This document shows, in pieces, positions 2,870 to 43,810 of a stretch of 64,000 bases of DNA. The DNA is taken from contig CAYGYG010000013.1 of the NCBI GenBank assembly GCA_964354155.1, positions 3,696 through 67,695 of the forward strand, written 5' to 3'. Within the stretch, counting starts at the first letter, position 1; every line of letters begins with the position of its first letter. Source of the DNA: an uncultured bacterium. Its GTDB lineage: Bacteria; Hydrothermota; Tepidihabitantia; SM23-42; CAYGYG01. A program made the position numbers and the translations under genes. The notes beneath the pieces were generated by a model. It worked only from the letters and a program-made list of their open reading frames with translations, made no database searches and was not told where the DNA came from.

Positions 2870-4165
2870 TTGATGAAGTCGATGGTCAACCTCAAGTATG
2901 ACGAGATACCTTCGCGCTGGTACAACATCATTCCGGATCTGCCGGAGCCGCTGCCGCCGCCGCAGGATCCGAAAGACGGTCCCTCGCGGATCCAGAACCT
3001 GCCCAACATGATGATTGGGGAGTGCCTGAAGCAGGAGTTCTCAAACGAGCGGTGGATCGACATCCCGGGCGAAGTCATGGACCTGTATGCGCGGGCCGGC
3101 CGGCCCCGTCCGCTGTTCCGGGCCACCAATCTGGAAAAGAAACTCGGCACGCCGGCGCGGCTTTACTACAAGAGCGAATTCTTCAGTCCGACCGGCAGTC
3201 ACAAGGTCAATACCGCCCTGGCTCAGTGTTACTACGCAAAAGCACAGGGTTTCGAGCGTTTGACAACTGAGACCGGTGCGGGTCAGTGGGGTACCGCGCT
3301 TGCCTATGCCGCAGCCGTAACTGGTTTGAAAGTCACGGTATACTGGGTGAGGAGTGTCTACAACTGGAAAGCAGACCGGCTGTCGTTTATGAAGCTTCTC
3401 GGGGCCGAAGTCTACGCGTCACCGAGTCCGAAAACCAAGATTGGTAAGGCGCTTTACGATAAAGACCCGAATCATAACGGTTCGCTCGGCATCGCCATTT
3501 CGGAAGGCCTTGAGGATTCCAACAACGACCCCAAGGCAACCTATGCCCTCGGCTCGGTTCTCAATCACGTCTTGATGCACCAGACGATCATCGGCCAGGA
3601 AACGCAGAAGCAGTTTGAGATTTTCGACGACTATCCTGACCTGGTGATATCATGCTTAGGCGGCGGCTCGAACTTCGGCGGTTTCGCCATACCGTTCCTC
3701 GGTGAAGTTCTGACCAAAGGGAAGAAGACCAAATTCATCGCGGCCCAGAGCCAGGTGGCGCCCAATCTCCAGGGCAAGTATGAGTATGATTTCGCCGACT
3801 ACGGGGAGATGACCCCGATGCTCAAGATGTACACCCTGGGCCATAAAACCGACATGGCGCCGATCAAGGGTGACGGCCTGCGCTACCACGGATGCTCGCC
3901 GATTCTGAGTCTGCTGCGCAACAAGGGTTACATCGACCACATCGCCTATCCGGGCGACGAAAAACATGTCTTCGAGAACGCCCAGCTCTTCATGGAGACC
4001 GAGGGCTGGTTGCCGGCGCCTGAGTCAGCCTACTCGATCTGCGCCGCGATCGACGAAGCGCTCAAGTGCCGCAAGTCCGGGGAGAAGAAGGTCATCGCCT
4101 TCAACGTCAGCGGCCACGGCTTTCTCGACATCCCCGGTTTCCGTTCGGTCCTGGGGCTGAAGTAG
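2870..4165 (+). CDS. trpB2: TrpB-like PLP-dependent enzyme (TrpB2, stand-alone tryptophan synthase beta type 2)
   Basis: WYNI.PDLP N-terminus, PTGSHKVNTA PLP lysine, TETGAGQWG, GGGSNF, SGHG. No trpA nearby. Confidence 0.9.
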   Translation: MMKSMVNLKYDEIPSRWYNIIPDLPEPLPPPQDPKDGPSRIQNLPNMMIGECLKQEFSNERWIDIPGEVMDLYARAGRPRPLFRATNLEKKLGTPARLYYKSEFFSPTGSHKVNTALAQCYYAKAQGFERLTTETGAGQWGTALAYAAAVTGLKVTVYWVRSVYNWKADRLSFMKLLGAEVYASPSPKTKIGKALYDKDPNHNGSLGIAISEGLEDSNNDPKATYALGSVLNHVLMHQTIIGQETQKQFEIFDDYPDLVISCLGGGSNFGGFAIPFLGEVLTKGKKTKFIAAQSQVAPNLQGKYEYDFADYGEMTPMLKMYTLGHKTDMAPIKGDGLRYHGCSPILSLLRNKGYIDHIAYPGDEKHVFENAQLFMETEGWLPAPESAYSICAAIDEALKCRKSGEKKVIAFNVSGHGFLDIPGFRSVLGLK

Positions 4166-4383
4166 GTCGCACGCGGTAAGGAAAGCGGATCAGGACATCG
4201 GATGATCAGTAGGCAGGATATCAGCAGTGAGATTATCAGTTTGAATCCGCTGCAATCCGTCTGAATCAAGATATGTCTTATCACTGTAATCTGCCGTTTT
4301 ATCGTCGTAATCAACGGTGCTCTGCACCGAACGATCTAACGAATGAAACGCTCTAACGATCTTAACGTTTGTCATCACTGTAC
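4166..4383. repeat. Mosaic intergenic spacer (inverted CTGAT-family repeat, ATCCG tract, two ATCACTGTAATC units, GGTGC..GCACC hairpin, TAACG tract)
   Basis: The same bricks recur in many spacers between 12.9 and 45.5 kb. Confidence 0.7.
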
Positions 4384-11502: not shown

Positions 11503-12870
11503 ATGAAACGATGTACCGTTGTGATTGGGGTTGTTGGGAGCATGATTGCATTCTTTTCTCTGGCCGGAGCCAGAGTCTGGCACGTTCATCCTGACTCGGG
11601 GTTGTGTCGTATACAATGAGCCCTTGATTCATGTGGGACCGGCGACACGGTTCTGGTGGGGCCAGGGACATACTACGAGCACATCGTCTGGCCCGTAACC
11701 CACGGCATTGACCTCGTCAGTGCTCTTGGTCAGGATAGCACGATCATCGATGGCGACAGCACCGGAACGGTAATATCCGTGTCGGCAACGATCGATACGA
11801 CAACGGTCATTAGAGGCTTCACGATTCAGCGCGGATGCGGACCGATGGGAGGAGGCATATTCTGCGTGGCCTCTTCACCGATTATCACCGGCAACACCAT
11901 CACGCGGAACACGGCGCGGGGCGGGGCCGGCATTCTCTGCTACCAGATCGCGGCCCAACCGATTATCCGGGGCAATCTAATCACCCGCAACAGCGCGGTC
12001 TGGGGCGCACAAGGATGGGGCGGCGGCATCGCCGTCTGGTCCGGGGCGCCAACCATCACCGGCAACACGATTACCTCAAACAAGGCCTATTACTTAGGCG
12101 GCGGCATCGAATGCGAAGGCGCGAGTCCAACCATCGCCCATAATACAATTAGCTATGACACTGCTGTGTATTCGGGCGGTAGTGCGGGCGGTGGCGGCAT
12201 CGCCTGCGGTTGGGGAGGAATGTCGCGAATCAGAGGAAACAGGATCACTAGAAACCGCGCCCGCTACGGTGGCGGCGTTTACTGCCGGGACACGGCGTGC
12301 CCGGTCATCGACAGTTGCGACATATCGAACAATGTCATTTACGGACTCTATAACGACTTGGGGGCAAGCCCGGTATTGCGCTACAACACTATCACCGACA
12401 ACATGTGGGAAGCGGTTGTCAACGTGGATTCGACGCAGACCGTTGATGCCCGGTACAACTGGTGGGGCGATTCGACCGGTCCGTTCCATCCGGGCACCAA
12501 CCCGGGCGGCCGGGGCGATACAATAACCGACTATGTCGCCTACAACCCGTGGCTCAGACGACCGGTGGTAGCGATTTGCGAGCCGGTAGCCGTCGGTCCG
12601 CACGTGCCGCTTCTTTCGGTCAATCCGAATCCTTTCCGAGACTGCACCGTAATCGGATTCGGCCTTGAGGGCCGGGCCGCGGGTGCACGGCTGCAAGTCT
12701 TCGACGCGGCCGGACGGTCGGTGAGGTGTCTCGACCTGAGTTCACATTCTCAGTTTGCGGTCTGGGACGGTCGGGATGACTCAGGACGTCGGCTCGCGAG
12801 TGGCGCCTATTTTATCCGGTTCGTATCGGCCCGGGACCAGGAGACCAGGAAAGTTCTGCTCCTACGCTAA
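11503..12870 (+). pseudogene. Exported right-handed beta-helix protein with FlgD-Ig/T9SS-like tail, interrupted by in-frame TGA at 11617-11619
   Basis: AGGAGG-ATG 11503, signal peptide, then IQ*ALDSCGTGDTVLVGPGTY in the same frame as ORF 11656-12870. GGGI/N.I.N beta-helix repeats. Confidence 0.75.
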
Positions 12871-12893: not shown

Positions 12894-12945
12894 CACTGAT
12901 CTTCTGACCGCTGATATCCTTCCCACTGATGTCCGGATATCCTGG
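12894..12945 (+). repeat. Solo copy of the ~55-bp CTGAT-periodic repeat family
   Basis: cactgatcttctgaccgctgatatccttcccactgatgtccggatatcctgg aligns with copies at 28072, 28222, 31068 and 31734, and with inverted copies near 4190 and 27598. Confidence 0.75.
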
Positions 12946-12973
12946 TGTGCCGGCAATCGACGTTCCTTTTCCC

Positions 12974-25046: not shown

Positions 25047-25186
25047 GGGAGAGGAATGCAAGAATGCCCTTCGGGCGGAATCCACGTACGAAGCGTTGAA
25101 ATCGTCTCGGCGAGACGGAATCGGCCCTTTCGGGCGGAACGAATCAGTACTTGATCACTGTAATCGTGTTTTCTTATCACAGCCTG

Positions 25187-25214
25187 CCCCGTTAGACTGG
25201 AAGTCTAAACGGGG
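25187..25214 (+). repeat. 28-bp hairpin repeat CCCCGTTAGACTGGAAGTCTAAACGGGG, copy 1
   Basis: Identical copies at 25339, 31149, 36206 and 42125; 5'-truncated copy at 40723. Confidence 0.9.
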
Positions 25215-25237
25215 TAATCGACGATGTTTCATCGCTC

Positions 25238-25265
25238 TTGACATTGCCGTCTTTCGCACTATACT
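25238..25265 (+). promoter_or_regulatory. Promoter TTGACA-N16-TATACT between two hairpin repeats
   Basis: Near-consensus hexamers. Confidence 0.6.
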
Positions 25266-25338
25266 TCCGTGATTAACACTGTCACCGTAGCTCTTTGAAA
25301 ACACCATTAACTCCGTTCCGATGCTTCATCGCTGCCGG

Positions 25339-25366
25339 CCCCGTTAGACTGGAAGTCTAAACGGGG
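25339..25366 (+). repeat. 28-bp hairpin repeat, copy 2
   Basis: Identical to copy 1. A diverged copy follows at 25428-25458. Confidence 0.9.
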
Positions 25367-25522
25367 TCATTGCGAGGCCGTAGGCCGCGGCAATCTCATC
25401 CATTCATCTCTGTAAGCGGTCGTTTCACCCCGTTAGATATGGCAATGTCTAATCCGGGTCACTCTGAGTGAGACGAAGAGTCTCAATTAGATCCTTCGTC
25501 CCGGACGGGACTCAGGATGACA
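25366..25522 (+). repeat. REP/MITE-like palindromic elements (GTCATTGCGAG..GGCAATCT and GTCACTCTGAG..AGATCCTTCG..CTCAGGATGACA)
   Basis: Both match widespread miniature palindromic repeat types. The second is self-complementary at its ends (GTCACTCTGAG/CTCAGGATGAC). Confidence 0.6.
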
Positions 25523-25579
25523 GCTAGAGCCAACGAATTGCCTCAATAGCCAATTACCAACAACAACCAAGGAGCTAAC

Positions 25580-27568
25580 ATGAAGATTTTGTCGCTTGTT
25601 TTCGTCGCTCTGGTTGCTGCCGGCTTCAGCACGCCGCCGCAACTTGATCTGGTGCGCATCGACATCAGCCACCCCGACCAGGTCAAAGAACTGGATCGGG
25701 CCGGAATCATCATCAACTCGGTCGCCCCGGATCACGTCGTCGCCGAGATCGAGCGGTCCGAGTATTTGTCCCTGGCGGCGCGTGGTTTCCACGCCAAGCT
25801 GCTCCAGGAGAATATCTCCGGGGTATACTACGCAAACAGCCTGACCAAGTCGCCGTTCGGCCGGTATCTCACCTATACCGAATTCCGGGATTCGATGATC
25901 ACGATCGCCGGCAACAATCCCGGCATATGTCGTCTCGAGACGCTGGGCACGACGGCCCAGGCCCGTCTTATTCTAAGCATGAAGATCTCAGACAACGCCG
26001 CGGTCAATGAACAGGAGCCGCCGGTCCATTTCGACGGGGACACGCACGGCGACGAGAAGTGCGGTTGGGCGGCCTGCTGGGAGATGATCAAGTACCTGGT
26101 CAGTCGCTATACCACCGACACCCTGGTCGCCCGGCTGGTCAATACCCGGGAAATCTACATCGCGCCGATGTTCAACCCGGACGGGTTCAATTCCGGCAGC
26201 CGCTACAACTCCCGCACCGTCGATTTGAATCGTAACTGGGGCTGGATGTGGGGCAACGAATCGGCCTGCGGCGCCGACTTCATGAGCGAAAACGAAACCC
26301 GGGCCTTCATGGCCCATTTCTGGCGCCACCCGTTCGCGACCTTCATCTCCTATCACGGCGGCACGTTGATGATTTCCGAGCCCTGGTCCTACACCGACCG
26401 GATGGTCCTGCCCGAGAGCGTGCTCATTCACCATCTTTCGAGAGGCTACCGTTCCTACACCAACTATCCCTATGGTCAGGGTTCGATCGTCATGTATCTC
26501 ATCAACGGCTCTTCCAAAGACTACAACTACGGCTGCGGCGGCGAGATGGGATGGTCGGTTGAAGTCTGCATGACCAAGACCCCGCCGGCCGATTCGATCG
26601 ACCGGATCTTCGCGCGCGACGGCCCGGCGATGCGCTACATCATGAACAAGGCCGGGTTCGGCATTCACGGCCGGGTCACCGATTCGGTTACCGGTGCGCC
26701 GCTCTATGCCCACATCATGGTCGGCCCGACCAACGTCATTTCTCACAGCTGTCCGACCAACGGCGACTATCACCGGTTCTACCTGCCGGGCACCTACAGC
26801 CTTACCGTCCGGGCGCCGGGCTACGACCCCAAGACGATCAGCAACGTCGTTGTACCGAACAATACGCGTGACTCGTCGGTCACGGTCAACGTCGGGCTGA
26901 GACGCAATACCACTGCCCGGGTCTATGCGACGCGGGTCATCGGCAGCCAGTGGGTGACGACCACGTCGAATCTTACTTATCCGTACCGCGCCGTAGGTCC
27001 GCAGGACGGCCAAGCCTACCAGCTGGATGCGACCAAGTGGATCGTGCTGGCGATGGACGTGCCGATCAAGAACGTCTCGGGCAATGACTTCACGGTCTAC
27101 CGGTCAAGCGGCACCGGCACGGCGACGGTGCGCATCGGCAATTCCTGGTCCGGGTCGTGGTCCATCGCCGGTACCGCCAACGCCGCCGCCACATCATTCG
27201 ACATCGCCTCAACCGGACTCGATTCGGCGCGTTACGTCCGGCTGGAAGCGGCAAGCCAGTTCATGCTCGACGCGATCGAGGCATCGCAGCGGGTCGGCGT
27301 CGCGGAAGAACCGAGGGTCGTGCCACCGGTCATCGACGATTTCCGCATCTGGCCCAACGTAATGCGGAGCGGCTCGAAAGTTAACTTCGCCAACCCGCTG
27401 GCCAAGCCCGCCGAAGTGACCATCTACAATGCCGCGGGCCGTAAGGTCTGTGCTTTGACCATCCCGGTCCGTGTCTCGAGCGTGCCCTTTGCGGACCTTG
27501 CCGCCGGCGTCTATTTCGTCGGGCTTGAGGGCGCCGCCGCGCGGGCGCGAATCACCGTCGTACAGTAG
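25580..27568 (+). CDS. Exported M14 zinc carboxypeptidase with regulatory domain and T9SS-like C-terminal tail
   Basis: Signal peptide, HGDE, NPDG..R.N...DLNRN, SYHGG, WSVE catalytic Glu, LAAGVYFV tail. Confidence 0.88.
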   Translation: MKILSLVFVALVAAGFSTPPQLDLVRIDISHPDQVKELDRAGIIINSVAPDHVVAEIERSEYLSLAARGFHAKLLQENISGVYYANSLTKSPFGRYLTYTEFRDSMITIAGNNPGICRLETLGTTAQARLILSMKISDNAAVNEQEPPVHFDGDTHGDEKCGWAACWEMIKYLVSRYTTDTLVARLVNTREIYIAPMFNPDGFNSGSRYNSRTVDLNRNWGWMWGNESACGADFMSENETRAFMAHFWRHPFATFISYHGGTLMISEPWSYTDRMVLPESVLIHHLSRGYRSYTNYPYGQGSIVMYLINGSSKDYNYGCGGEMGWSVEVCMTKTPPADSIDRIFARDGPAMRYIMNKAGFGIHGRVTDSVTGAPLYAHIMVGPTNVISHSCPTNGDYHRFYLPGTYSLTVRAPGYDPKTISNVVVPNNTRDSSVTVNVGLRRNTTARVYATRVIGSQWVTTTSNLTYPYRAVGPQDGQAYQLDATKWIVLAMDVPIKNVSGNDFTVYRSSGTGTATVRIGNSWSGSWSIAGTANAAATSFDIASTGLDSARYVRLEAASQFMLDAIEASQRVGVAEEPRVVPPVIDDFRIWPNVMRSGSKVNFANPLAKPAEVTIYNAAGRKVCALTIPVRVSSVPFADLAAGVYFVGLEGAAARARITVVQ

Positions 27569-27597
27569 GGCCTGCGAAGGAGCGAAATAGCAGCGCT

Positions 27598-27652
27598 GAC
27601 CAGATGACCAGAAGATCAGTGGGAAGGGTACCGGCAGATCAGGTGATCAGTG
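27598..27652 (-). repeat. Left inverted arm (CTGAT family) of four-helix-bundle cassette 1
   Basis: Reverse complement aligns ungapped to 28072-28126 at about 36/55 positions (hand count). Confidence 0.7.
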
Positions 27653-28062
27653 TGAAAGATGGGGGAGGATCAGAATCACAGTATAATGCTATCGCAGGTT
27701 TTGAGAGACTGTGGGTGTGGCAGAAATCACACCGGCTCATGCTTGAAGTCCACTCTCTCTGCAAGAAACTGCCCAGGATTGAGAGGTTCAAGATCAGAGA
27801 CCAGTTGGAGCGTTCCTCATGCTCGGTTCCGGACAACATCGCTGAAGGCCACACGAGCTACTACTATCAGGACAAGATCAAGAGCTTCAATATCGCCCGA
27901 AAGGAAGCAGGGGAAACCCAGAATCATATTAGGAGTCTGCAGGGCAAGGGTTACCTACCAGCCGGGGATGCTGACGATTTTGTTAAGCGTTATGAAGAGG
28001 TCATCAAAGGGATCAACGGATATATCAATTGGGTGAAAGAGAAGAAGGGCGCCCGAAAATGA
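27652..28062 (+). CDS. Four helix bundle protein (23S rRNA intervening-sequence protein/bAvd-like family)
   Basis: FE.L.VWQKSH, FKIRDQLERS..SVPDNIAEG, IARKEAGET. GTG start at 27652 after AGGTGA. Confidence 0.88.
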   Translation: MKDGGGSESQYNAIAGFERLWVWQKSHRLMLEVHSLCKKLPRIERFKIRDQLERSSCSVPDNIAEGHTSYYYQDKIKSFNIARKEAGETQNHIRSLQGKGYLPAGDADDFVKRYEEVIKGINGYINWVKEKKGARK

Positions 28063-28071
28063 ACGACACGC

Positions 28072-28272
28072 GTCTGATGTGCTGATATGCCGATATCCTG
28101 GCTACTGATATTCGGATATCCTGATATGCTGCCTTCGGCATCGATTACAGTGATGGCAGGACTGAGATCCCTCGCTGCCCTCGGGACGATGTAAACATCG
28201 GATTACGATGATTCATTGCTGATTTCTGCTGTGCTGATACCCTGCCCACTGATGCCCGGATGCGCTGATATG
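28072..28272 (+). repeat. Right arm of cassette 1 (28072-28126) and a second direct CTGAT-family copy (about 28222-28272)
   Basis: CTGAT/CCGAT/CGGAT recur at 8-12-nt spacing. An inverted ATCACTGTAATC unit lies at 28143-28155. Confidence 0.7.
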
Positions 28273-28295
28273 CTTGAACTAATGAGGTCAACCCC

Positions 28296-29654
28296 ATGAT
28301 CGCTCTCTTGATCGTCTTTGCGTTCACGCCTTACTACTTTGTTCACAACAGCGATCCGCAGATCGGGCGATCCCCGGAAGGCGAGCCCAACCTGGATTCA
28401 GCCGTTGCCCAGATCGGGCGGATGCAGCCGGCGCCGAGCTTCATATACGTGGCCGGTGACATCTCCGACAACCCGCTGGATTCGGCCATCGTCCATGACC
28501 AGTGGACGCGTGCTCGGACGCGTTTCAACCGGCTCTCGATTCCTAAGTACTACGCGGCCGGCAACAACGACCTCGGGTATCCGAGCGAACTGGAAAGCGT
28601 GCCCAGGATGCTATATTGGTATCGCAACTTCTGGGGGCCGGACTGGTACTCCTTTGACCGCGACTCCTGCCACTACATCGTCCTCAACTCGACCCTGCTG
28701 GACGTGGCCAGCGGCCATGTCCACTACCCGGCGTCGCTGGCCCAGGACAGTTTCTTGCGCAGCGACATCCAGTCCATCCAGGGCCGGCGCTGCAAGCATC
28801 TCTTTTTTCTCTACCATTTCCCGACTTACATCAGCACACCGGACGAAGCCAATCAGACCGGCAATGTCCACCGGCCGCGTCGCGACACCATCCTCAAGTA
28901 CGTGCGCAACAACGGCTTCAGCGCGATTCTTGCCGGCCACATCCACGCCGACGGCCAGACTCTATATCGTTCCGCGGTGCTCCAGGCCGGCCTGGCCACT
29001 TGCACCGGGCCCCTGTCCAGCACCGGCTACCGGGTTGTGAAAGCATTCCATAATGGGATAGAGACCTTCACCGTCTTTCTCTCGGCCCCGTTCGACAGCG
29101 TGCCTATGGTCAATATCGTCACGCCCACGGCCAGCCCTGAGACCGTCGTGGTCAACCAGACGGTTTCGTTTCAAGCGGGCGTCGATACGGTGCGCTTCCC
29201 GGATTGGCGCGGGTTGTCCTTCCGGTGGAATTTCGGTGACGGCGACAGCTCGTGGGTACGGACCACGTCACATGTCTACCGGGATACCGGCAACTATCTC
29301 GTTGCGTTCACCGGTTACCAAGCGCCGCGCAAGGCGGCCAATTATCATCTCAGGATTCGCGTGAATCCGCCGTCGCTCGTTGGAGGTGCCAGGCCCGAAT
29401 TGCGGGACGGACGTACGGTGATCTTGAGCGCGGTGCTTGCCGGCGCGGTCGCGTTTGAAACGGCTGAACCGGGAAGAGTCACGCTTGCGCTCTACTCCAG
29501 CGACGGACGAAAAGCCGCGATTCTCATGGACCGCTATCTTGAAGCTGGTCGGCACCGGGCGGCGGTTCCATCCCGGCTGGCGGCCGGCGTCTATTTCGTC
29601 GAGCTTGCCACACCCTTTGAACGAGCAGTGAAGAAGACAATTCACCTGCGTTAA
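28296..29654 (+). CDS. Exported calcineurin-like metallophosphoesterase with PKD domain and C-terminal sorting-like tail
   Basis: SDPQ, GDISD, GNND, HFP and GHIH motifs; W.FGDG PKD; LAAGVYFV tail. Confidence 0.8.
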   Translation: MIALLIVFAFTPYYFVHNSDPQIGRSPEGEPNLDSAVAQIGRMQPAPSFIYVAGDISDNPLDSAIVHDQWTRARTRFNRLSIPKYYAAGNNDLGYPSELESVPRMLYWYRNFWGPDWYSFDRDSCHYIVLNSTLLDVASGHVHYPASLAQDSFLRSDIQSIQGRRCKHLFFLYHFPTYISTPDEANQTGNVHRPRRDTILKYVRNNGFSAILAGHIHADGQTLYRSAVLQAGLATCTGPLSSTGYRVVKAFHNGIETFTVFLSAPFDSVPMVNIVTPTASPETVVVNQTVSFQAGVDTVRFPDWRGLSFRWNFGDGDSSWVRTTSHVYRDTGNYLVAFTGYQAPRKAANYHLRIRVNPPSLVGGARPELRDGRTVILSAVLAGAVAFETAEPGRVTLALYSSDGRKAAILMDRYLEAGRHRAAVPSRLAAGVYFVELATPFERAVKKTIHLR

Positions 29655-29695
29655 GATCGGGAAAACGCGGGACGCAAGGACGCCACGGACATCTT

Positions 29696-30454
29696 ATGCT
29701 TAATGCGAGGCCATGCGGCACTGCAATCATCGCCATACTGAGCCTGCTCGCAGCTCTGCCGGTTTGCGCGTCCGAAACCGCCTGCCTCGGCTTGTCGTTG
29801 ACCATGCTCTTGATCCTGCGAAATCGTCGACGCAAGGCCGTCCGACGGATTGTCGCGTCAGGGTTCTCCCGGCGCCTGGTGTGGAAGGCCGCCTACCGTT
29901 TCGGCCGCAACCTGAGCGCGATGCTCAAGAATCGTGTCCACGACTGTGTCTCGGAGAGAGAGGTCGTCATTCACGGCGAAGACCAGATTTCAGCCTTGGC
30001 CCAAGGCGGCGTGGCCGTCGGTTACCATTTCGGTCCCTGGGAGCTATTGCCCGGAATTTTGGCCCGGCGCGGCCTGCGGATGGGTGTCGTGACCAATTTC
30101 TACGCCGCCCGGCCGATTGATCAGTTCCTACGCCGGTTCCGCGCACGCGACCGGGTGGAGCTGTTCTATGCCAACGGGCCGGAGAACGAAGTCCGCCGGA
30201 TGATCGAGTTCATAAGATCGGGCGGCACGGTCGGGGCGCTGATCGACGGCGATACGTTCGACCAGAAGTACCCGGTTCTCAAGCGTATCATCGATCGATT
30301 CGGGTTTCGTGTCGTCCCGGTTTTCGGCTATCTAAAACATGGGAAAATGCATGTGTTTGTCGGTCACCCGCTGACCGACGCTCTAAGGTATTCACCTGAG
30401 AATTACTTCTGGTTCTATGCCAGTCATGAATCCATGCTCCAAGCCGAGTCGTAA
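29696..30454 (+). CDS. Lysophospholipid/lipid A acyltransferase (LpxL-like)
   Basis: HFGPWE (Hx4D/E), G.L.D motif, N-terminal membrane anchor. Start uncertain. Confidence 0.7.
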   Translation: MLNARPCGTAIIAILSLLAALPVCASETACLGLSLTMLLILRNRRRKAVRRIVASGFSRRLVWKAAYRFGRNLSAMLKNRVHDCVSEREVVIHGEDQISALAQGGVAVGYHFGPWELLPGILARRGLRMGVVTNFYAARPIDQFLRRFRARDRVELFYANGPENEVRRMIEFIRSGGTVGALIDGDTFDQKYPVLKRIIDRFGFRVVPVFGYLKHGKMHVFVGHPLTDALRYSPENYFWFYASHESMLQAES

Positions 30455-30552
30455 CTCCCGCTTCCATTTCCTTGTCGTAACGCCCGATAAAACATAAGTT
30501 CCGTACTCATCTGGAATCCGACCTAAGGTGTTGTACTCATTGAGGTTGCCTG

Positions 30553-30580
30553 TTGACATTGAAGTCAGGTCAGTTATAAT
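30553..30580 (+). promoter_or_regulatory. Promoter TTGACA-N16-TATAAT with no downstream ORF for about 660 nt
   Basis: Perfect hexamers. Confidence 0.65.
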
Positions 30581-30610
30581 ACCAATCCCAGTTGTGTTAA
30601 TATGAGTAAT

Positions 30611-30644
30611 TCAGGTGAATACCTGATATCCATTATTCACCTGA
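30611..30644. promoter_or_regulatory. Perfect 11-bp inverted repeat (TCAGGTGAATA-N12-TATTCACCTGA), operator-like
   Basis: Seen directly, 30 nt downstream of the -10 box. Confidence 0.5.
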
Positions 30645-31148
30645 CGGATAGAATGTAATTTGAGAGCTTGTAGGGCTTTGTTCCATGCGTGGAGGCGTGG
30701 ACTCGCTCTTAAGGTAAATGGGGGAATCCCCAGCAGGTCCGCGCAATAATCAAATACGTGCGTTCTTTGCCGCACTCGGTTCTTAGCGGTCTATCACCGG
30801 CACCGATTGATGTTATCGCTGTGATCGGTTTTCTCGTCATCACTGTGATCAGCGGTTCTATCACTGTAATCGAACGCGCAGCGTGTGTAACCGAGGCGGG
30901 CGAAGCCTGCTGAAGCAGGGAACAGGATACAGGGCACAGCAATCAGGGAACCAGCATTGAGCGTACAGAGTAGCGAGTAGAGAGAAGCGACAGAAAACGC
31001 AATCCGTTTCGTCTATCGTCCTAGTGAGCGTAGCGAACGATCGTCCTTAGTCCGTCGCCCGTATCTCCCGATCTTCCGACCGCTGATACCCCGTCCACTG
31101 ACCATCTGATGTCCTGATCCGCTCACCTTCGGCGTTCATCACTGCCTG

Positions 31149-31176
31149 CCCCGTTAGACTGGAAGTCTAAACGGGG
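31149..31176 (+). repeat. 28-bp hairpin repeat, copy 3
   Basis: Identical to copy 1; lies directly upstream of the hicBA promoter (TTGACG-N16-TATAAT, 31210-31237). Confidence 0.9.
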
Positions 31177-31243
31177 TAATCGACGGTGCCCTGCACCCAG
31201 AAGATGGGCTTGACGTGGTCCTCTCAAGGAGTATAATGCAATC

Positions 31244-31471
31244 ATGAAGAGACGTAAGACGGAATACACCGTGATCATGCATCCGGCCGAAGAGGGCGGT
31301 TACTGGGTCGAAGTGCCGGCGCTCCCCGGATGTTATTCGCAGGGGGAGAGCGTAGAAGAGGCCCTTGAAGGCATCAAAGAAGCCATTGAGGTGCACCTGA
31401 TTGCCCTGAGAAAACAGGGCAGGAAGGCACCCAAGGACCAGACCCTCGTGCTCAGTCACGTGGAAGTCTAG
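31244..31471 (+). CDS. hicB: HicB family antitoxin (HicB-like N domain), probably leaderless
   Basis: YTVI.HPAEEGGYWVEVPALPGC.SQGES.EEAL..IKEAI. Confidence 0.9.
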   Translation: MKRRKTEYTVIMHPAEEGGYWVEVPALPGCYSQGESVEEALEGIKEAIEVHLIALRKQGRKAPKDQTLVLSHVEV

Positions 31472-31504
31472 GGCCTACTTCCTCCATTGCTTTCCATCTC
31501 TTGA

Positions 31505-31726
31505 ATGGGCAAACAACTCAGAGGACTCAAAGCCAGAGAAGCGATCATAGCTTTCGTGCGGGCTGGCGGAGTTCGGAAACTTGGCAAGGGCAGTCACGTC
31601 AACATTAAGATGCCCAACGGCATGATTATGACAATTCCGGGGAAAGGCGAACTCAAGATCGGCTTGCTGAAAAACGCGATTCATAAAGCAGGTCTGACCG
31701 AAGAGCAATTCGCTCGCCTGCTCTAG
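31505..31726 (+). CDS. hicA: HicA family toxin
   Basis: L.G....E.I.AF...G.....GKGSH...K......TIP....LK.GLL...I..AGL..E.F..LL. Confidence 0.88.
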   Translation: MGKQLRGLKAREAIIAFVRAGGVRKLGKGSHVNIKMPNGMIMTIPGKGELKIGLLKNAIHKAGLTEEQFARLL

Positions 31727-31858
31727 CGGTCACCCGATCTTCCGACCGCTTATACCCCTCCCACTGATTCGCTGATCTTCTGATCTACTTGTTTTCTTTT
31801 CACCCTTTACGTTTTCCCCTTCACCTTTAACCATTCACTGACATAATAGGAGGCCTTA

Positions 31859-33529
31859 ATGCGTCTTTCACTTCTCTTCTTTCTTGTGCTTGCCGTGTCG
31901 GCTACAGCCGACTTCAACCGTACATCGGAAGTCATCGACGTGCCCACCGGACATACGCTGGGGTTGGGGCAGCTAAGAGCCGGCGCCGTCGGCGGCCTGG
32001 CCCTGAGTCTGTCTGAAGACACCCATGATGCGGACATCGACTTTGCCGGGGCTATCGGCCTGGGTAAGGGCTTCGAAATCTCGACCTCCATCTTCAGTCT
32101 TGATAATGTTGTCGTACTGGGGATGTCCAAGCAGATCCTGGCCCGCAAGAACACCTGGCTTGCCGTCGGCGTGCACGACCTGAGCTATTCGTGGAGCGTT
32201 TCGTCGGTCGGCGGCGGGGCTGACCAGGAGGGCTGGGACGATGATGTTCAGTACGAGTACGGCGAGTCGATCAAGCCGGCCGAAGCTTTTTCATTGTTCT
32301 TGACCGGGACTAAGAGCTTTAATACCGGCGGCGATCTTACCCTTGGTTTGGGCCGGGGACGGTTTGTCGGCTACGGACCCAACAGCAAGTACTTCAACAC
32401 CGAGTTTTACACCGACGACAAGAGCGACTGGGCAATCGGCCTGTTCATCGGGTACAAACTTCCGATCACCAGGTCGCTTGATCTGCTCTTTGATCTCGAC
32501 GGCAGGGATGCGAATCTCGGCCTTTGCCTGCACACGAAGCGTTTCGAAGTGGCGGTCGCGGGAGTGAAACTCGAACAATTGTGGGCTGACGGCTTAAGTT
32601 CGTGGGTCTCGGCTGGTCTGTTCTACAAGACGGGTCTTGTCCCGGAAAAACCAAAGGACGGGATCATCGCCGGCACGGTCACCGACCGCGAAACCGGCAA
32701 ACCGGTTGCGGCCGTGGTCGCCATCGAAAATTCTGGGATACCCGGCAGCGGCACCGACCCTTTGACCGGATACTACACCTTTGAAGGTTTGCCGCCGGCA
32801 ACCTATAATCTTGTCGGCACGGCACAAGGCTACGAGAGTTCGACCCGAATGGTGGTGGTCAAGGCCGGCCAACTGACCCGGGTCGATTTTTCGCTGGTCC
32901 GGGCCAAACCCATCGCCGGCCAGCTTACCGGGAGTGTCCTGGACAGGAAGACCAGTGCACCGTTGATTGCCGAACTGAGTCTTTTTGCGGTAGCCACAGG
33001 TGTCGTGGCCGGTCAACCGGTTGGGCAGACCAAGTCGGCTCAGACCGGAGCCTATGCATTTGCCGACGTCCCGGCCGGCAACTACCAATTGCGCGCCGAG
33101 GCGATGGACTACGCTGACCAGGTCATCAATTTGACGATTTCTGCCGGTGCCCGGACCACCCAGGATATCCATATGTTAAAGGTGGGCATGGTCATCACTT
33201 TGCAGGGAATAAAGTTTGACTTTAACAAAGCGACGATAAAGCCTGAATCTGCGCCTGTTCTTGATGAAGCTGCTGCCATGCTCGAGAACAATCCGGACAT
33301 CAAAGTCGAGATCCAGGGGCACACCGACAACGTCGGCAGTCGGACTTACAATCTGCGGCTATCGCAAGCGCGAGCCCAGGCGGTCGTCGACTATCTTGTG
33401 GCCAAGCAGGGGATTAGTACCGCGCGGCTCTCGGCCCGGGGCTATGGTTTTTCGATGCCCGTCGCCAGCAACGCGACGGTAGACGGCCGCGCCCAAAACC
33501 GCCGAGTCGAATTCGTAATCGTGAAATAG
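31859..33529 (+). CDS. OmpA-family outer-membrane protein: N-terminal beta-barrel-like region, two carboxypeptidase-regulatory-like domains, OmpA C-domain
   Basis: Signal peptide; I.FDFNKA.I, GHTD..G....N..LSQARA..V, NRRVEF. Confidence 0.9.
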   Translation: MRLSLLFFLVLAVSATADFNRTSEVIDVPTGHTLGLGQLRAGAVGGLALSLSEDTHDADIDFAGAIGLGKGFEISTSIFSLDNVVVLGMSKQILARKNTWLAVGVHDLSYSWSVSSVGGGADQEGWDDDVQYEYGESIKPAEAFSLFLTGTKSFNTGGDLTLGLGRGRFVGYGPNSKYFNTEFYTDDKSDWAIGLFIGYKLPITRSLDLLFDLDGRDANLGLCLHTKRFEVAVAGVKLEQLWADGLSSWVSAGLFYKTGLVPEKPKDGIIAGTVTDRETGKPVAAVVAIENSGIPGSGTDPLTGYYTFEGLPPATYNLVGTAQGYESSTRMVVVKAGQLTRVDFSLVRAKPIAGQLTGSVLDRKTSAPLIAELSLFAVATGVVAGQPVGQTKSAQTGAYAFADVPAGNYQLRAEAMDYADQVINLTISAGARTTQDIHMLKVGMVITLQGIKFDFNKATIKPESAPVLDEAAAMLENNPDIKVEIQGHTDNVGSRTYNLRLSQARAQAVVDYLVAKQGISTARLSARGYGFSMPVASNATVDGRAQNRRVEFVIVK

Positions 33530-33587
33530 AAAATGATCCCGGATGCACGATGCAGGATACTCGATAGCCAAGGTAAGGAGATCAGCA

Positions 33588-33968
33588 ATGACACGATACA
33601 CTGACCTGGAAATCTACAAACTAGGACACAATCTGGCCGTTGAAGTCCACAAGATGACCCTAGCGGATTTGCCAAAGTTCGAGATGTTCGAGGAGGGCGG
33701 TCAGGTCAGGCGTTCCTCAAAGTCCATCGTCAGCAACATCGTTGAGGGCTATGGCCGGCGGCGCTACAAGCAGGAGTTCATTCAGTTTCTCACCTATGCA
33801 ATGGCTTCGTGTGATGAAACGAAAGAGCACCTGCAGTTGCTATGGGATACGGATTCACTCAAGGACAGAACGCGATTTGTGCACTTTTCTGAGGGGTATG
33901 AGAAGCTGGGCGCCAAACTCAACAGTTTCATAGCTTCCGTCATAAAAGGCCATCTCTCACCTAGGTAG
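33588..33968 (+). CDS. Four helix bundle protein
   Basis: [45 protein letters not shown]. Confidence 0.9.
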
Positions 33969-34190
33969 CGCTTCTTGTAGCTTCTCCTGTGTCCATCCTG
34001 TATCTTGTGTCGTTCATCTTGTTTCATGCCTTGCATATCGTGTATCGAGTATCCTGGATCTTATCTCGTGTCATTCTCGTCGTTCCTGCTTCGCATCATG
34101 TATCCTGGATCCCATGCCGTTCTCTTTTATCGTGTATCCTGTATCGAGTATCATTCTTTTCCATCGTGTATCATGTATCGTGGATCAGGC
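33969..34190 (+). repeat. Heptamer (TATCNTG-like) periodic tract; an inverted block lies upstream of the gene at 33541-33567
   Basis: tatcgtg-tatcgag-tatcctg-gatc blocks. Upstream ggatgca-cgatgca-ggatact-cgatag is the reverse-complement pattern. Confidence 0.8.
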
Positions 34191-34266
34191 CTTAAACCCG
34201 TTGTTGACAATTCTCGCCCTATGGATACACTTCATGTAGGAGATGACCTAATAACCTGTTCTTCAC

Positions 34267-35352
34267 ATGCGATCTAAAATCCTTCTAATCAATCCGGACG
34301 AAGCGGAGATTTCTCAGCTCCAGCATCTGCTGGAGACTGAGGGTCATAAGGTCAAGAAAGTCTACTCGGGCGAGGCGGCTCGCCGCGTCTGCGAGGACGA
34401 TACTTACGACCTGGTTCTTGTCTCCAGCACCCTGAAGGACACCAATGTCGGCGAGCTTATCCACAAACTGCGCCAGCCCTGTCCCGAGACCGAGTTTATC
34501 ATCATTACGAACCTGGCCCAATTCCAGAATCTGTCCGGCGTGAGCCACTATGATGTCGCCGGCTATCTCATTCCGCCGATCACCGAGGACAAGGTGCGGG
34601 AGGTTTCCCAGCGGGCGATCCGTCAGCACGAACTGCTCCGGGAGAACCGGCGTCTGATCGACGCCATCACCCAGGCCAAGAAGGAGTGGGAGGCGACGGT
34701 CGACGCCATCGAAGACCCGATCTTCATCGTCGATGCCGACCACAAAATCGTCCGCGCCAACCTCGCGCTGTTCCGGATGCTCAACAAGGGCGTTTCCCAG
34801 GTCATCGGCCAGAAGTGCAGTATCCTGCTCCACATGTCCGATGCCGCGCCGTCGGATTGTGTCATGGAAACGGTCAAGCGCGAGGCCGGCCCGATCACGT
34901 CCGACCTTACCTGCCGGGGTTTGGGCGACGGCAAGTACATCTGCGCCGCCTACCCGCAGATATTCGTCGGGGGATTCGGCACGGTTCATGTCCTGCGTGA
35001 TGCCCGGAAAGTCATCGGTGACGACCGCTACCGCCAGACCTTCGAGAAGAACCCGGTGCCGTCCCTGCTTCTCGAATACGACACCAGAAAGATTATCGAC
35101 GCAAATGCCAAAGCCCGCAACCTGCTCGGCTACAAGAAGGACGAGCTGATCAACGTAGCGTTTGACCATTTTCTGACCAGTGAGGACCGGGACAGCATCA
35201 TCATGGCCATGCCCAAGAATTTCAACGGCATGATTCACGAGGTGAAAGCCCAGGTCCTCAACCGCGAGAATCTCAAGCTCCAGGTCCGGCTCAGCTTCGG
35301 TATTGTTGAATTCGACAAGAAGATGGTCCTTCAAGTCGTCATCATCCCGTAG
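34267..35352 (+). CDS. Response-regulator receiver plus two PAS domains, no output domain
   Basis: REC-like N-terminus, KKEWEATVDAI.DPI...D....I.RAN PAS, second PAS (IDAN..A..LLGY...EL). Promoter TTGACA-N16-TACACT at 34204-34231. Confidence 0.8.
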   Translation: MRSKILLINPDEAEISQLQHLLETEGHKVKKVYSGEAARRVCEDDTYDLVLVSSTLKDTNVGELIHKLRQPCPETEFIIITNLAQFQNLSGVSHYDVAGYLIPPITEDKVREVSQRAIRQHELLRENRRLIDAITQAKKEWEATVDAIEDPIFIVDADHKIVRANLALFRMLNKGVSQVIGQKCSILLHMSDAAPSDCVMETVKREAGPITSDLTCRGLGDGKYICAAYPQIFVGGFGTVHVLRDARKVIGDDRYRQTFEKNPVPSLLLEYDTRKIIDANAKARNLLGYKKDELINVAFDHFLTSEDRDSIIMAMPKNFNGMIHEVKAQVLNRENLKLQVRLSFGIVEFDKKMVLQVVIIP

Positions 35353-35481
35353 GTTCCTCTTTTTTCTTCACCTTTTTCTGCGCCTGGCGCTTTGTCAAAT
35401 CCGCAATCCAAAATCTTAACGGTGCTTTATCGCTGTAATCGTGTGTTCTTATCACTGTAATCTACGCGTAGCGACGCGGAG

Positions 35482-35580
35482 CGTGGCAATCCCATTCTCT
35501 GTGTGCATCCTTATTCTCTCTACTTGCTACTCGCTACTTATTACAGCATCCGTTTGCATCCGCTCCCATCCGTTTGAATC
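35482..35580 (+). repeat. ~100-bp near-identical direct repeat, copy 1 (copy 2 at 37857-37962)
   Basis: cgtggcaatcccattctctgtgtgcatccttattctctctactt...actcgctacttattacagcatccg...catccgtttgaatc is shared. Confidence 0.85.
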
Positions 35581-35592
35581 TTTGACTTTCTA

Positions 35593-35799
35593 ATGATGAA
35601 ACGCCTCTGGTGTAATAAATTCCGCTCACGCCGCGATGCCGACCGCTTTGATCAGGTCTACTACGAGCGGATGACGTCAAAGCAGCGGCTGGAGATTGTG
35701 CAGATGTTGAGGGATTCAGTCTTCATGCTGCCTGATATATCCAGACATGAAAACCGAAAAAGACTACGAAGAACTATTAAGGTTGTTCAACAAGCATAA
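35593..35799 (+). CDS. Small hypothetical protein, partner of the downstream nucleotidyltransferase
   Basis: AD.FD..YY..MT..QRLE pattern; overlaps the next gene. Confidence 0.6.
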   Translation: MMKRLWCNKFRSRRDADRFDQVYYERMTSKQRLEIVQMLRDSVFMLPDISRHENRKRLRRTIKVVQQA

Positions 35800-36214
35800 G
35801 GTCAAGTACTGCATCGTCGGAGCCTACGCGGTTGCCTACTATGCCCGGCCGAGATATACGAAGGACCTCGATATTTTCATTGATCCGGTGTGGGACAACG
35901 CGGCACGGCTCGTGAAAGCGTTGGAAGAGTTCGGATTCAAGGGTTTGAACCTACGGCCGGAAGACTTCATGGTCAAGGGAAGCGTGGTTCAGCTTGGTTA
36001 TGAACCGGTTAGGGTTGATATTGTAAGCTCGATCAGCGGCTGTTCTTTCGGCACGGTCTGGAAGAGCCGGGAGGTTGGCCGATACGGGAAAGAAAAGGTC
36101 TTCTTCATCGGTCTGGCCCAGTTGATCAAGAACAAACGCGCCGCGCAGCGCGCGCAGGACAAGGCGGACCTTGAGCTTCTCGCCAAAGTGCGTGCCCGGC
36201 GGCGACCCCGTTAG
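35747..36214 (+). CDS. Nucleotidyltransferase-fold protein (DUF6036-like)
   Basis: VGAYAV..Y..PRYTKDLDI, NK.A..R.QD.ADL. Confidence 0.8.
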   Translation: MKTEKDYEELLRLFNKHKVKYCIVGAYAVAYYARPRYTKDLDIFIDPVWDNAARLVKALEEFGFKGLNLRPEDFMVKGSVVQLGYEPVRVDIVSSISGCSFGTVWKSREVGRYGKEKVFFIGLAQLIKNKRAAQRAQDKADLELLAKVRARRRPR

Positions 36215-36233
36215 ACTGGAAGTCTAAACGGGG
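36206..36233 (+). repeat. 28-bp hairpin repeat, copy 4 (supplies the TAG stop of the nucleotidyltransferase)
   Basis: Identical to copy 1; the ORF ends in CCG-CGT-TAG-like overlap within the repeat (stop at 36212-36214). Confidence 0.9.
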
Positions 36234-36353
36234 TAATCGACGGTGCTCCGCACCGAACGATACTAACGCTCATCGCTGTCCCGTACGGGACGATCTCGTC
36301 AACGCTGTTGATTTTCGTATGATTTGATGTATAATCTACGCAATGGAGGCCTC

Positions 36354-36563
36354 ATGCGTACCACATTACGCAGTGTAACAATAAAAGGCGACAAGCCACT
36401 AGTTGTCATTTCTGCCGAGCAATACGAGAGGATGATGGAAACGATCGAACTACTTTCTATCAACCCTGATTTGGCAGATGACCTAAAGGCAGAAAGAAGA
36501 AGAATGGACAAGGGTGAGTATATCACCCTTAGTGATTATAAGAAGAAATACCGCCGACACTGA
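36354..36563 (+). CDS. Phd/YefM-like antitoxin
   Basis: VVISAEQYERMMETIELLS.NP. GGAGG RBS; promoter TTGATT-N16-TATAAT at 36308-36335. Confidence 0.8.
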   Translation: MRTTLRSVTIKGDKPLVVISAEQYERMMETIELLSINPDLADDLKAERRRMDKGEYITLSDYKKKYRRH

Positions 36564-36832
36564 TGTATCAGGTTCGTTTATCGCACTCCGCTGAGAGGTT
36601 CTTGGATCATATGCACCGATCAAACCGTAGCCTATTCGGCAGACTCATGCAATCCTTGGATAAGGTATCAAAAGATCCCTTTAGCGGGAAGGCGTTAATG
36701 GGGAATCTAAAGGGCCACTATTCGTACCGGGTCGGTGATTACCGAATACTGCTGGAAATCGATAAGGCGAAGCACATCGTCTATGTCGAGAAGATTGAAC
36801 ACCGCAGTGCTGTTTACCAGAGGCACTCTTAG
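36563..36832 (+). CDS. RelE/ParE family toxin
   Basis: MYQV.L...A..FL, P..GK.L.GNL.G.YS.RVGDYRIL..I, I.HRS.VY. Confidence 0.9.
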   Translation: MYQVRLSHSAERFLDHMHRSNRSLFGRLMQSLDKVSKDPFSGKALMGNLKGHYSYRVGDYRILLEIDKAKHIVYVEKIEHRSAVYQRHS

Positions 36833-37116
36833 CGGTCTAAGGTTCTAACGCTTTTAATGTGCTCAACGCTCCTATCACTGTAATCGTGTTTTCTTATCAC
36901 CGTAATCGACGATGCTTCATCGCTGTAATCGATGTGCCTCCGGCACAAACGTTCTAACGATATTAACGTTATAACCCTCTTCATCACTGTAATCAGCCTT
37001 TCTCATCGCTGTAATCGATTCCGCTTCAGCGGAAACCAAATAAACTTGATAAACCAGATAAACCAAGAGAACGTTCCTAACGCTATTAACGATATTAACG
37101 GCAGATGCTTCATCGT
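36833..37116. repeat. Mosaic spacer: five ATCA/GCTGTAATC units, TTCCGCTTCAGCGGAA hairpin, AAACCA tract, TAACG tracts
   Basis: Units at 36872, 36894, 36917, 36981 and 37003; hairpin at 37019-37034. Confidence 0.8.
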
Positions 37117-37458: not shown

Positions 37459-37459
37459 T

Positions 37460-40669: not shown

Positions 40670-40722
40670 TTGACGCTATTAATCCATCCCGCCTGTCACG
40701 TGTGATCACCTATTACATCGTG

Positions 40723-40821: not shown

Positions 40822-41235
40822 ATGAAACTCCAATCCTTCCAGGACCTTAAAGTGTGGCAGTTGTCTTCAGCATGTTCAAATGATATATCACAGTTGATCA
40901 AAACCTTCCCCCGTGCTGAACGTTTTGAACTCGCTGATGATCTTTTGCGTGCAGCGCGATCTGTACCAGCTAACATAAGCGAAGGATGGGGGAGATTGTT
41001 CCCAAAAGAGAAAATATCATTCTACAATATTTCTTACGGTTCAGCCGAAGAGTGCTCTAACCACTTAATCGAAGCGCTCAACAATGGCTATATAGATAAT
41101 GAAACTAACAGTAGATATCAAAAGAGAATACACGTTATTTCTGTCAAACTTACCAATCTCATTATTTCCACGCGCAAGCGTATCAATTCTTCAGTCCCGC
41201 AGGGACGTGTCTCCAGTCTGCAAAAGCAGCCGTGA
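40822..41235 (+). CDS. Four helix bundle protein
   Basis: SFQDLKVWQ, FP..E.F.L...L.RAARSVPANISEG.GR. Confidence 0.9.
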   Translation: MKLQSFQDLKVWQLSSACSNDISQLIKTFPRAERFELADDLLRAARSVPANISEGWGRLFPKEKISFYNISYGSAEECSNHLIEALNNGYIDNETNSRYQKRIHVISVKLTNLIISTRKRINSSVPQGRVSSLQKQP

Positions 41236-43198: not shown

Positions 43199-43408
43199 TG
43201 AACGTGGCTGAGGGTTTTGCTCGTGAGACCGACAACGAATTCATCCGCAGCTTGGCTACCTGGCAGCCTGGCAACTGGGCAATCGGGCAATCGAGCAACG
43301 GGGCAAAGAGCAGGACATGGAATGCTGGAACGGTGCGTTGCACCGCAATGACGCTCTGACGCAATGACCCAATGACGTTTTTTCTTTTTCTGACCCAATG
43401 ACTCTTCC

Positions 43409-43810
43409 ATGAGAATCGCCCGTTTCCAGGACTTGCTCGTATGGAAGTTGTCGTCAGAGCTGGCCAAGGATGTCGCCACCAGGCTTGCTTCTTTGTTTCC
43501 GAAAAGTGAGCAGTATCGACTCGGTGATCAGATAATCCGGTCTTCTCGGTCCGTACCGGCTCAGATATCCGAAGGTTTCAGAAAATCCTCTTTGAAGGAG
43601 AAACACCACTATTACGAAATGGCAACGACATCTAACGATGAAACTGAGAATCATCTTGTTGAAGCATACAATAACAGATTCATTGACGCTGGAGTCCTAA
43701 GGCGGTATGTCAATCGGGTTGTTCGTGTGCGTATTCTTCTATCTCGCCTCATGGCGTCAATCCGTCATTTGGAAACCGTGCGGCGCACTAAGCCGGCTCG
43801 TAGAGCCTGA
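43409..43810 (+). CDS. Four helix bundle protein
   Basis: RFQDL.VW, FP.SE.Y.L.DQI.RSSRSVPA.ISEG. Confidence 0.88.
   Translation: MRIARFQDLLVWKLSSELAKDVATRLASLFPKSEQYRLGDQIIRSSRSVPAQISEGFRKSSLKEKHHYYEMATTSNDETENHLVEAYNNRFIDAGVLRRYVNRVVRVRILLSRLMASIRHLETVRRTKPARRA

Follow-up and report, generated by a model that had tools for sequence, protein, structure and literature searches.

A four-helix-bundle gene of the 23S rRNA intervening-sequence family, enclosed by inverted periodic arms, is one copy of a conserved and probably mobile cassette

The window analyzed here is a 64,000-nucleotide (nt) stretch of contig CAYGYG010000013.1 (assembly GCA_964354155.1) from an uncultured bacterium of the Hydrothermota, and our subject is a small gene within it, which we call hb1, together with the repeat arrays on either side of it. 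The gene lies between, and on the same strand as, an upstream M14 carboxypeptidase gene and a downstream gene for a metallophosphoesterase-PKD protein, and it encodes a protein of family PF05635 (23S_rRNA_IVP). It is preceded by a periodic left arm and followed by an inverted copy of that arm (right arm 1), which in turn has a direct duplicate a short distance downstream (right arm 2); the coordinates of these and all other features are collected in Table 1. The arms have a layout of about 58 nt, in which three 8-nt ATCAGnnn units, a 10-nt asymmetric centre, TGGGAAGG (TGGGAAGGnT), and three further units follow one another. We find that gene and arms together make up one copy of a conserved cassette that is present across phyla, with its own motif and period in each subfamily.

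The left arm (27598–27652) and the right arm (28072–28126) are complementary at 36 of 55 positions without a gap, and other registers within ±6 nt of this alignment give no more than 21 complementary positions. Among 20,000 random pairs of window segments the mean was 13.9 complementary positions (standard deviation 3.4) and the maximum 30, so that a chance pairing of the two arms is ruled out; a repeat search of the window returns them as an inverted repeat of 40 nt at 75%. The left arm ends at the GTG codon at 27652, and the right arm begins 9–10 nt past the TGA. Other identities for the arms were considered and rejected: an attC-like recombination site, as a single arm has no internal palindrome; a CsrA-sponge-like array of GGA motifs, as the GGA positions belong to the unconserved spacers and the window's arm lacks the motif; and arrays of Dam or EcoRV sites, which are inconsistent between loci.

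The hb1 open reading frame (ORF; 27604/27652–28062, + strand) matches PF05635 over positions 2–106 of the 106 in the model, with a score of 97.3 bits (gathering cut-off 33.8; E 7e-28). Its AlphaFold2 monomer model has four helices (predicted local distance difference test score, pLDDT, 83), with residues 1–17 disordered, and Foldseek aligns it with 2gsc (XCC0516) and 2rld (BT_0352) at template modeling (TM) scores of ~0.9 each and with bAvd (4dwl) at ~0.85, the last at a sequence identity of only 11–14%. In sequence, phmmer relates hb1 to 2gsc at E 6e-9. XCC0516 and BT_0352, pentamers of the “S23 ribosomal protein family”, are the closest solved relatives, and the solved relatives of the hb1 protein are pentamers (chains A–E). 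The RxxxSxxxNxxE motif named by Zhang, Doak and Ye (PMC3936711) is conserved in them and is present in hb1 as R54, S58, N62, and E65, which are invariant or nearly so in 25 sequences; in place of the G that opens the published GxxR, hb1 has Q51. Some hb1 homologues also match the Pfam bAvd model PF22296. An earlier note on this DNA, made from the sequence alone, had described an ungapped 36/55 match between arms that end at the GTG and begin 9 nt after the stop, around a four-helix-bundle gene of the 23S rRNA intervening-sequence family, and the first of these figures is exact, the boundaries agree to within a nucleotide, and the family and fold searches bear out the third.

We surveyed 36 hb1 loci (35 from reference genomes plus the window), taking flanks of 150 nt on each side. 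The loci come from more than ten phyla, and relatives of the protein at 55–84% identity are found in WOR-3, Stahlbacteria, Thermodesulfobacteriota, Saccharibacteria, Margulisiibacteriota, Planctomycetota, WOR-1/Saganbacteria, Omnitrophota, Elusimicrobia, and Deltaproteobacteria. The upstream flanks contain 138 copies of ATCAG and 6 of CTGAT and the downstream flanks 183 of CTGAT and 29 of ATCAG, against a background of ~0.2 of either motif per 150 nt in the rest of these loci, and control ORFs are without such a bias. The homologues therefore do not lack an inverted orientation of their flanks, a lack that the earlier note had named as the finding that would speak against it. At least three units are present on both sides in 26 of the 36 loci, and the 58-nt arrangement of three units, centre, and three units is common to left arms and reverse-complemented right arms across loci. 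When the 5-mer content of the upstream flank is compared with that of the downstream flank in reverse complement, the cosine is 0.336 for hb1-type genes and 0.123 for 228 control ORFs of the same loci (p = 1e-14), and 26 of 34 hb1 loci exceed the 95th percentile of the control ORFs. Hairpins of the ATCAG…CTGAT form that enclose no gene adjoin the gene in five loci (L009, L017, L023, L026, and L029). The same unit of gene plus arms thus recurs in more than ten phyla, and we therefore regard it as a conserved cassette, and probably a mobile one.

The window holds three more four-helix-bundle genes (hb2, hb3, and hb4), and the four are 27–41% identical in pairwise comparison. The second of them, hb2, has arms of a different kind, and in our survey of 80 homologous metagenomic loci (76 of them in the lag analysis) its relatives carry GGATRCT-type heptamers upstream and AGYATCC downstream, so that the motif of this subfamily is an array of 7-nt GATRC units. 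The best self-match lag is 8 in the flanks of hb1-type genes (29 of 35 upstream, 33 of 35 downstream) and 7 in those of hb2-type genes (67 of 76 upstream, 54 of 76 downstream), and gene interiors have neither period. Within each subfamily, the 5-mer similarity of the arms rises with protein identity (Mantel r 0.42 for hb1 and 0.65 for hb2, p ≤ 0.0005), and between the two subfamilies it is only 0.134. In addition, a motif variant is more often common to the two arms of a single hb2 locus than to arms taken from different loci (0.285 vs 0.190, p < 5e-5). Protein and motif thus co-vary, in line with what had been expected of a protein that recognizes its own periodic flanks. By these sequence comparisons, the tracking of the protein tree by arm composition indicates co-inheritance and selection, and it is consistent with recognition of the arms by the protein, without proving it.

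The hb1 cassette is nearly always wedged between two co-directional genes in the same orientation as they, and no other conserved gene accompanies it. Its strand is that of the upstream neighbour in 29 of 32 loci (binomial p ~1e-6 against 0.5 and ~0.006 against a baseline of 0.7) and that of the downstream neighbour in 29 of 35, and the neighbouring genes are only tens of nt from the arms. Across the 36 loci the cassette has no conserved partner among its neighbours, and those that recur are lineage-specific only; in seven or eight Planctomycetota they are a beta-ketoacyl synthase-like ORF (fabF-like, judged by eye) and serS. Seven of these planctomycete loci (L010, L014–L016, L018, L021, and L035; Pirellulales and Sedimentisphaerales) have an hb1-type cassette at the same site between the fabF-like ORF and serS, and there the right arm ends 10–20 nt before the serS start codon.

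Closer relatives give some view of turnover at the window's own site. Contigs of related strains from two sediment metagenomes join 28068 to 28209 (X1) and 28078 to 28232 (X3) and so have a single right arm; the missing segment of 140–153 nt consists of one arm plus the GATTACAGTGAT modules of the intervening spacer. Among the DNA metagenome contigs this arm-plus-spacer indel was the only variant found, and no cassette-free joint was present. At another locus (L047, 2100–2758), which has the nearest M14 orthologue for which flanking DNA was available (77% identical), the corresponding position after that gene is taken by a four-helix-bundle gene from another subfamily (35% identical to hb1), flanked by purine-rich GAGGAGGGGAGGGG-type sequence upstream and pyrimidine-rich sequence downstream. 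M14 orthologues of 56–58% identity have no cassette, but the gene order around them is not the same, which disqualifies them as clean empty sites.

The hb1 start codon is probably GTG 27652, since the codon for residue A15, at which the conserved AGFE..LWVWQK core begins, follows 42 nt downstream, and nine homologous loci have an in-frame ATG at the same 42-nt distance from the core. In 27 of 34 loci there is also an in-frame ATG 30–110 nt upstream of the core, in the region of the left arm. Because of it, many protein database homologues (P0006, P0012, P0041, P0052, and others) start with the translated left arm, MSxSEDQDISxxxIxxSExQ. Gene callers may over-extend the N-termini of homologues through the left arm, a part that the AlphaFold2 model shows as disordered.

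A hidden Markov model (HMM) of the arm, trained solely on 38 arms from other genomes, recognizes seven copies in the window and no more (E 4e-14 to 7e-4). Besides the pair that encloses hb1, these take in every one of the solo arms that the earlier note had placed near 4190, 12894, 28222, 31068, and 31734, the third of which is right arm 2. The last two flank, as direct copies, a hicB-hicA module (31245–31725) that has its own TTGACG-N17-TATAAT promoter 6 nt before the ATG, and a 28-bp GC-clamped hairpin follows the first arm copy; this hicBA module looks like a cassette inserted at, or excisable between, the arms.

The window is also rich in repeats of other kinds. A hairpin, CCCCGTTAGACTGGAAGTCTAAACGGGG, has six dispersed intergenic copies (window 25176–42164 and elsewhere), and ATCACTGTAATC periodic arrays have seven dispersed intergenic copies in the window. 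Arrays of CATCCGnnnn occur at 35522, 37904, 4230, and 42020, and AAACCAGAT arrays at 37008, 38592, 40743, and 42149. Two tandem direct repeats of 58–63 nt (AGCCGTGACTYCAGGAGTGAAACGAC…) lie at 41228–41348, directly 3′ of the arm-less hb3, and a pair of copies of a 53-nt repeat, 96% identical and 162 nt apart, lies 3′ of hb4 (43836–44050), each beginning with the palindrome GCTCATGAAATGAGC.

Table 1. Arms, four-helix-bundle genes, and associated repeats in the window
Feature	Position	Strand	Remarks
Left arm of hb1	27595..27653	+	ACCAG/ACCAG/ATCAG, centre TGGGAAGGGT, ACCGG/ATCAG/ATCAG; 8-nt period; other-genome arm HMM E 4e-11
hb1, four-helix-bundle gene (PF05635)	27652..28062	+	GTG start 27652; stop TGA 28060-28062; alternative ATG 27604 inside left arm
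Right arm 1 of hb1	28073..28130	-	Inverted copy of left arm (CTGAT units on + strand); HMM E 4e-14
Spacer between right arms	28131..28216	.	Carries GATTACAGTGAT / GATTACGATGAT modules of another repeat family
Right arm 2 of hb1	28217..28274	-	Direct duplicate of right arm 1; HMM E 1e-11
Solo arm	4184..4239	+	ATCAG on + strand; 19 nt past stop of ORF 2870..4165; HMM E 2e-8
Solo arm	12895..12950	-	25 nt past stop of ORF 11656..12870; HMM E 8e-11
Solo arm upstream of hicBA	31067..31123	-	HMM E 7e-4
Partial solo arm downstream of hicBA	31752..31789	-	Direct copy of 31067-31123; HMM E 3e-5
hb2 left arm	33539..33572	+	Heptamers GATGCAC/GATGCAG/GATACTC; inverted repeats up to 18 nt at 94%
hb2, second four-helix-bundle gene	33588..33968	+	32% identical to hb1 (tblastn, blastp)
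hb2 right-side heptamer arrays	34030..34189	-	TATCGTG/TATCGAG/TATCCTG, expanded to several blocks (repeat search)
hb3, third four-helix-bundle gene	40822..41235	+	Best inverted repeat 20 nt at 70%
hb4 left arm	43344..43377	+	CAATGACN units, 8-nt period; inverted repeats, 21 nt at 81%
hb4, fourth four-helix-bundle gene	43409..43810	+	Right arm 43746-43769 inside ORF 3′ end

An ORF-bearing intervening sequence (IVS) of 23S rRNA was reportedly described in Leptospira by Ralph and McClelland in 1993. In such IVSs, as in the hb1 cassette, a PF05635 ORF occupies the loop between complementary termini. The cassette differs in lying between M14 peptidase and metallophosphoesterase genes rather than in rRNA (Rfam finds no family, and hence no rRNA, in the window), and so by location it is not a member of the rRNA IVS class; it differs also in having additional solo arms scattered in the genome. 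The closest parallel is the helix-45 IVS of Coxiella burnetii (S23p), whose termini form a stem in which the 5′ arm consists of tandem heptamers (GACAGAT) directly before the ORF; RNase III cuts it at the first repeat and so removes the ribosome-binding region (PMC4990558). Tandem short repeats thus precede the ORF in both, and the hb1 start codon stands at the edge of its arm, but the hb1 units are of 8 nt rather than 7 and its arms are about 65% complementary, compared with the near-perfect 28-bp stem of Coxiella.

The sole member of the superfamily with a known nucleic-acid partner is bAvd, from the diversity-generating retroelement (DGR) of Bordetella phage BPP-1 (4dwl; ribonucleoprotein 8ub7), which has the same fold as the hb1 protein. 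The bAvd pentamer contacts an RNA stem-loop with all five of its protomers through flipped-out bases (bioRxiv 10.1101/2023.10.23.563531). In contrast to a DGR, the cassette has no reverse transcriptase, template repeat, or variable repeat in or near it, and the putative partner is a periodic array that flanks the protein's own gene. The hb1 protein, presumably also a pentamer, probably binds its own periodic arms.

Genes of this family have also been reported within CRISPR-Cas operons. Zhang, Doak and Ye (2013) listed 18 23S_rRNA_IVP genes in such positions, for example between cmr3 and cmr2, and treated them as possible Cas-associated functions (PMC3936711). We note that on a plasmid of Picosynechococcus sp. 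PCC 7003 (L131, 1420–1920) a four-helix-bundle gene lies between cas10/cmr2 and cmr3 and is here seen to have inverted arrays of GGAGATA and TATCTCC. On Nostoc punctiforme pNPUN02 (L130, 1400–1900), GTCAGGA heptamers stand directly 5′ of the four-helix-bundle gene NPUN_RS35280, with their complement overlapping the 3′ end of the ORF, and the unit is wedged between two co-directional genes. Because the arm-bearing form is seen between cmr2 and cmr3 and on pNPUN02, its arrangement suggests that the cas-operon genes are insertions into operon spacers and not members of the pathway, and the arm-bearing cassette probably accounts for the published reports of the family in cas loci. Full-text literature searches found no paper describing such arms outside rRNA.

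How the cassette might work is suggested by these parallels. We give about equal weight to accepting and to doubting a composite reading in which it is an IVS-type cassette whose arms pair in RNA and are bound by the pentamer, with control of translation or processing as the outcome. The cassette would be transcribed by read-through from the host genes, and in keeping with this a scan of 27300–28500, which for promoters covered the sigma-70 consensus only, found neither a sigma-70-type promoter nor a same-strand terminator. Its arms would then pair in the RNA as a long interrupted hairpin, built of 5-bp AUCAG/CUGAU helices separated by 3-nt internal loops, that would enclose the ORF and cover the start codon, a design like that of the ORF-bearing 23S rRNA IVSs that RNase III excises. 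The pentamer would bind this periodic structure sequence-specifically, perhaps with one unit per protomer interface in the manner of bAvd, and its binding would set the translation of the cassette itself or an RNase III-type processing of it. Either outcome could render the insertion harmless to the host operon. Horizontal spread would proceed by a mechanism not visible in the sequence, and solo arms would be remnants or additional binding sites.

Folding of the RNA, a check that the earlier note had put forward, agrees with the pairing step: a partition-function fold of 27580–28145 gives 39.4 expected pairs between left and right arm, compared with 2.7 ± 6.3 when the right arm is shuffled, and in the predicted fold the cores alone suffice for the arms to pair. 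A number of observations weigh on the other side. A search of RNA sequencing runs turned up none containing the window cassette or a peatland hb2 locus. A longer fold (27450–28300) predicts that the left arm pairs with right arm 2 (35.5 expected pairs) and not with arm 1, and shuffled sequences reach a minimum free energy just as low as that of the region as a whole (z = 0.33). The arms are only ~65% complementary, a figure that the nearly perfect 28 bp of Coxiella far exceeds. In the ten loci with canonical arms on both sides (30 spacer plus centre positions), spacer identity between the left and the reverse-complemented right arm is 48.3% within loci and 45.9% between them (p = 0.14), transition mismatches have no G·U bias (40 G·U in the sense RNA vs 47 in the antisense), and pairing the two arms of the same locus is just slightly more favourable than pairing arms across loci (–54.3 vs –51.3 kcal/mol, p = 0.014). 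Ten of the 36 hb1 loci have no clear array on one side, and one of the four window genes, hb3, has no convincing inverted arms in its flanks (the best inverted repeat being 20 nt at 70%). Finally, an inverted pair of identical protein-binding arrays is equally a hallmark of DNA transposon ends.

Since spacers do not covary within loci and mismatches have no G·U bias, the conserved feature is the motif array and not base pairing as such. The spacers have therefore drifted freely, with the 5-nt cores fixed across phyla and under purifying selection; fixed cores with drifting spacers point to a reader of specific sequence as the target of selection, and not to a stem by itself. The IVS-like stem-loop cassette envisaged in the earlier note accordingly survives in part: the ORF does lie within long imperfect inverted arms, and the spacer and mismatch statistics speak against a pure stem.

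Conservation of core sequence rather than pairing, and the absence of a G·U strand asymmetry, are also what would be expected if the arms acted in DNA. The cassette would then be a DNA-level mobile element whose arms are terminal inverted repeats (TIRs), each with six protein-binding sites on double- or single-stranded DNA; the protein would assemble the ends and recruit a host or trans-acting nuclease or recombinase, and solo arms and gene-less hairpins would be non-autonomous derivatives. We consider this a serious if unlikely candidate. The identical 58-nt layout of both arms, the solo arms of the window and the gene-less hairpins of the five loci mentioned above, the hicBA module between two direct arms, the presence or absence of a 140-nt arm-containing segment among related strains, the different cassettes at the same site, and the spread of the family across phyla all fit it. 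In its inverted terminal arms, gene-less hairpins, solo copies, intergenic location, and many copies per genome, the cassette indeed resembles both miniature inverted-repeat transposable elements (MITEs) with their TIRs and repetitive extragenic palindromic (REP) sequences and bacterial interspersed mosaic elements (BIMEs). It is unlike a MITE, however, in carrying a conserved gene that is not a transposase and in having internally periodic arms, and no target-site duplication was seen at the arm boundaries, which are fuzzy, in 26 loci. Furthermore, neither the cassette nor its immediate surroundings contain a transposase or recombinase, hb1 alone is conserved there and lacks a recurring partner gene, its protein has no known catalytic activity, and our searches of plasmids, phages, and IMG/VR contigs found no close copies of it. 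The strong co-orientation with neighbours would also be unexpected of such an element, unless imposed by selection.

The arms might instead be independent intergenic repeats that the host maintains, whether REP- or MITE-like or arrays for a host factor, among which the gene merely lands or is retained and whose sequence its protein does not recognize. Five of the seven window copies are not next to the hb1 gene, several other periodic families in the genome have no four-helix-bundle gene nearby, and hb3 is arm-less, all of which would be natural under this explanation. We nevertheless find it quite improbable: the same ATCAG arm accompanies the same subfamily in more than ten phyla of differing host factors, another subfamily has a motif and period of its own, the composition of the arms follows the protein tree, and an HMM built from the arms of other phyla finds the window copies. 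A purely local device, in which the arms are operators or translational sites for autoregulation, without mobility or excision and with ordinary horizontal gene transfer accounting for the distribution, would suit a start codon in or at the edge of the left arm, arms predicted to pair over that codon, and core motifs under selection, but it is very improbable, as it leaves unexplained the solo arms and gene-less hairpins, the cassette of another subfamily at the same site, and the consistent wedging between unrelated co-directional genes.

Beyond the composite reading of IVS-type pairing with binding by the pentamer, we tentatively raise a more general possibility, of which we are more doubtful than of that reading. 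PF05635 pentamers may be sequence-specific readers of tandem arrays with a period of 7–10 nt, each lineage being matched to its own motif, and a gene with inverted arrays may represent an undescribed, cross-phylum class of selfish cassette that resides within transcription units, neutralizes itself at the RNA level as an rRNA IVS does, and leaves behind solo arrays that can still be bound.

Few bacterial proteins without an assigned function are as common as those of PF05635, and the question of where ORF-bearing rRNA IVSs come from and what they do dates back to 1993. The gene is accompanied by arms of its own, and motif and period track its lineage; the arms therefore give the family a concrete candidate nucleic-acid partner, the ATCAG arrays for the hb1 subfamily and the GATRC heptamers for the hb2 subfamily. 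The finding also suggests that the rRNA intervening sequences are a special case of a general, operon-dwelling cassette. For annotation it means that the N-termini of these proteins may often be over-extended through the left arm and that members of the family found among cas and polysaccharide operon genes are likely insertions. If the reading of the family as readers of arrays and of the unit as a selfish cassette were true, it would link the origin of the IVSs, the function of a very large orphan family, many periodic intergenic repeats, and the family's genes in cas operons.

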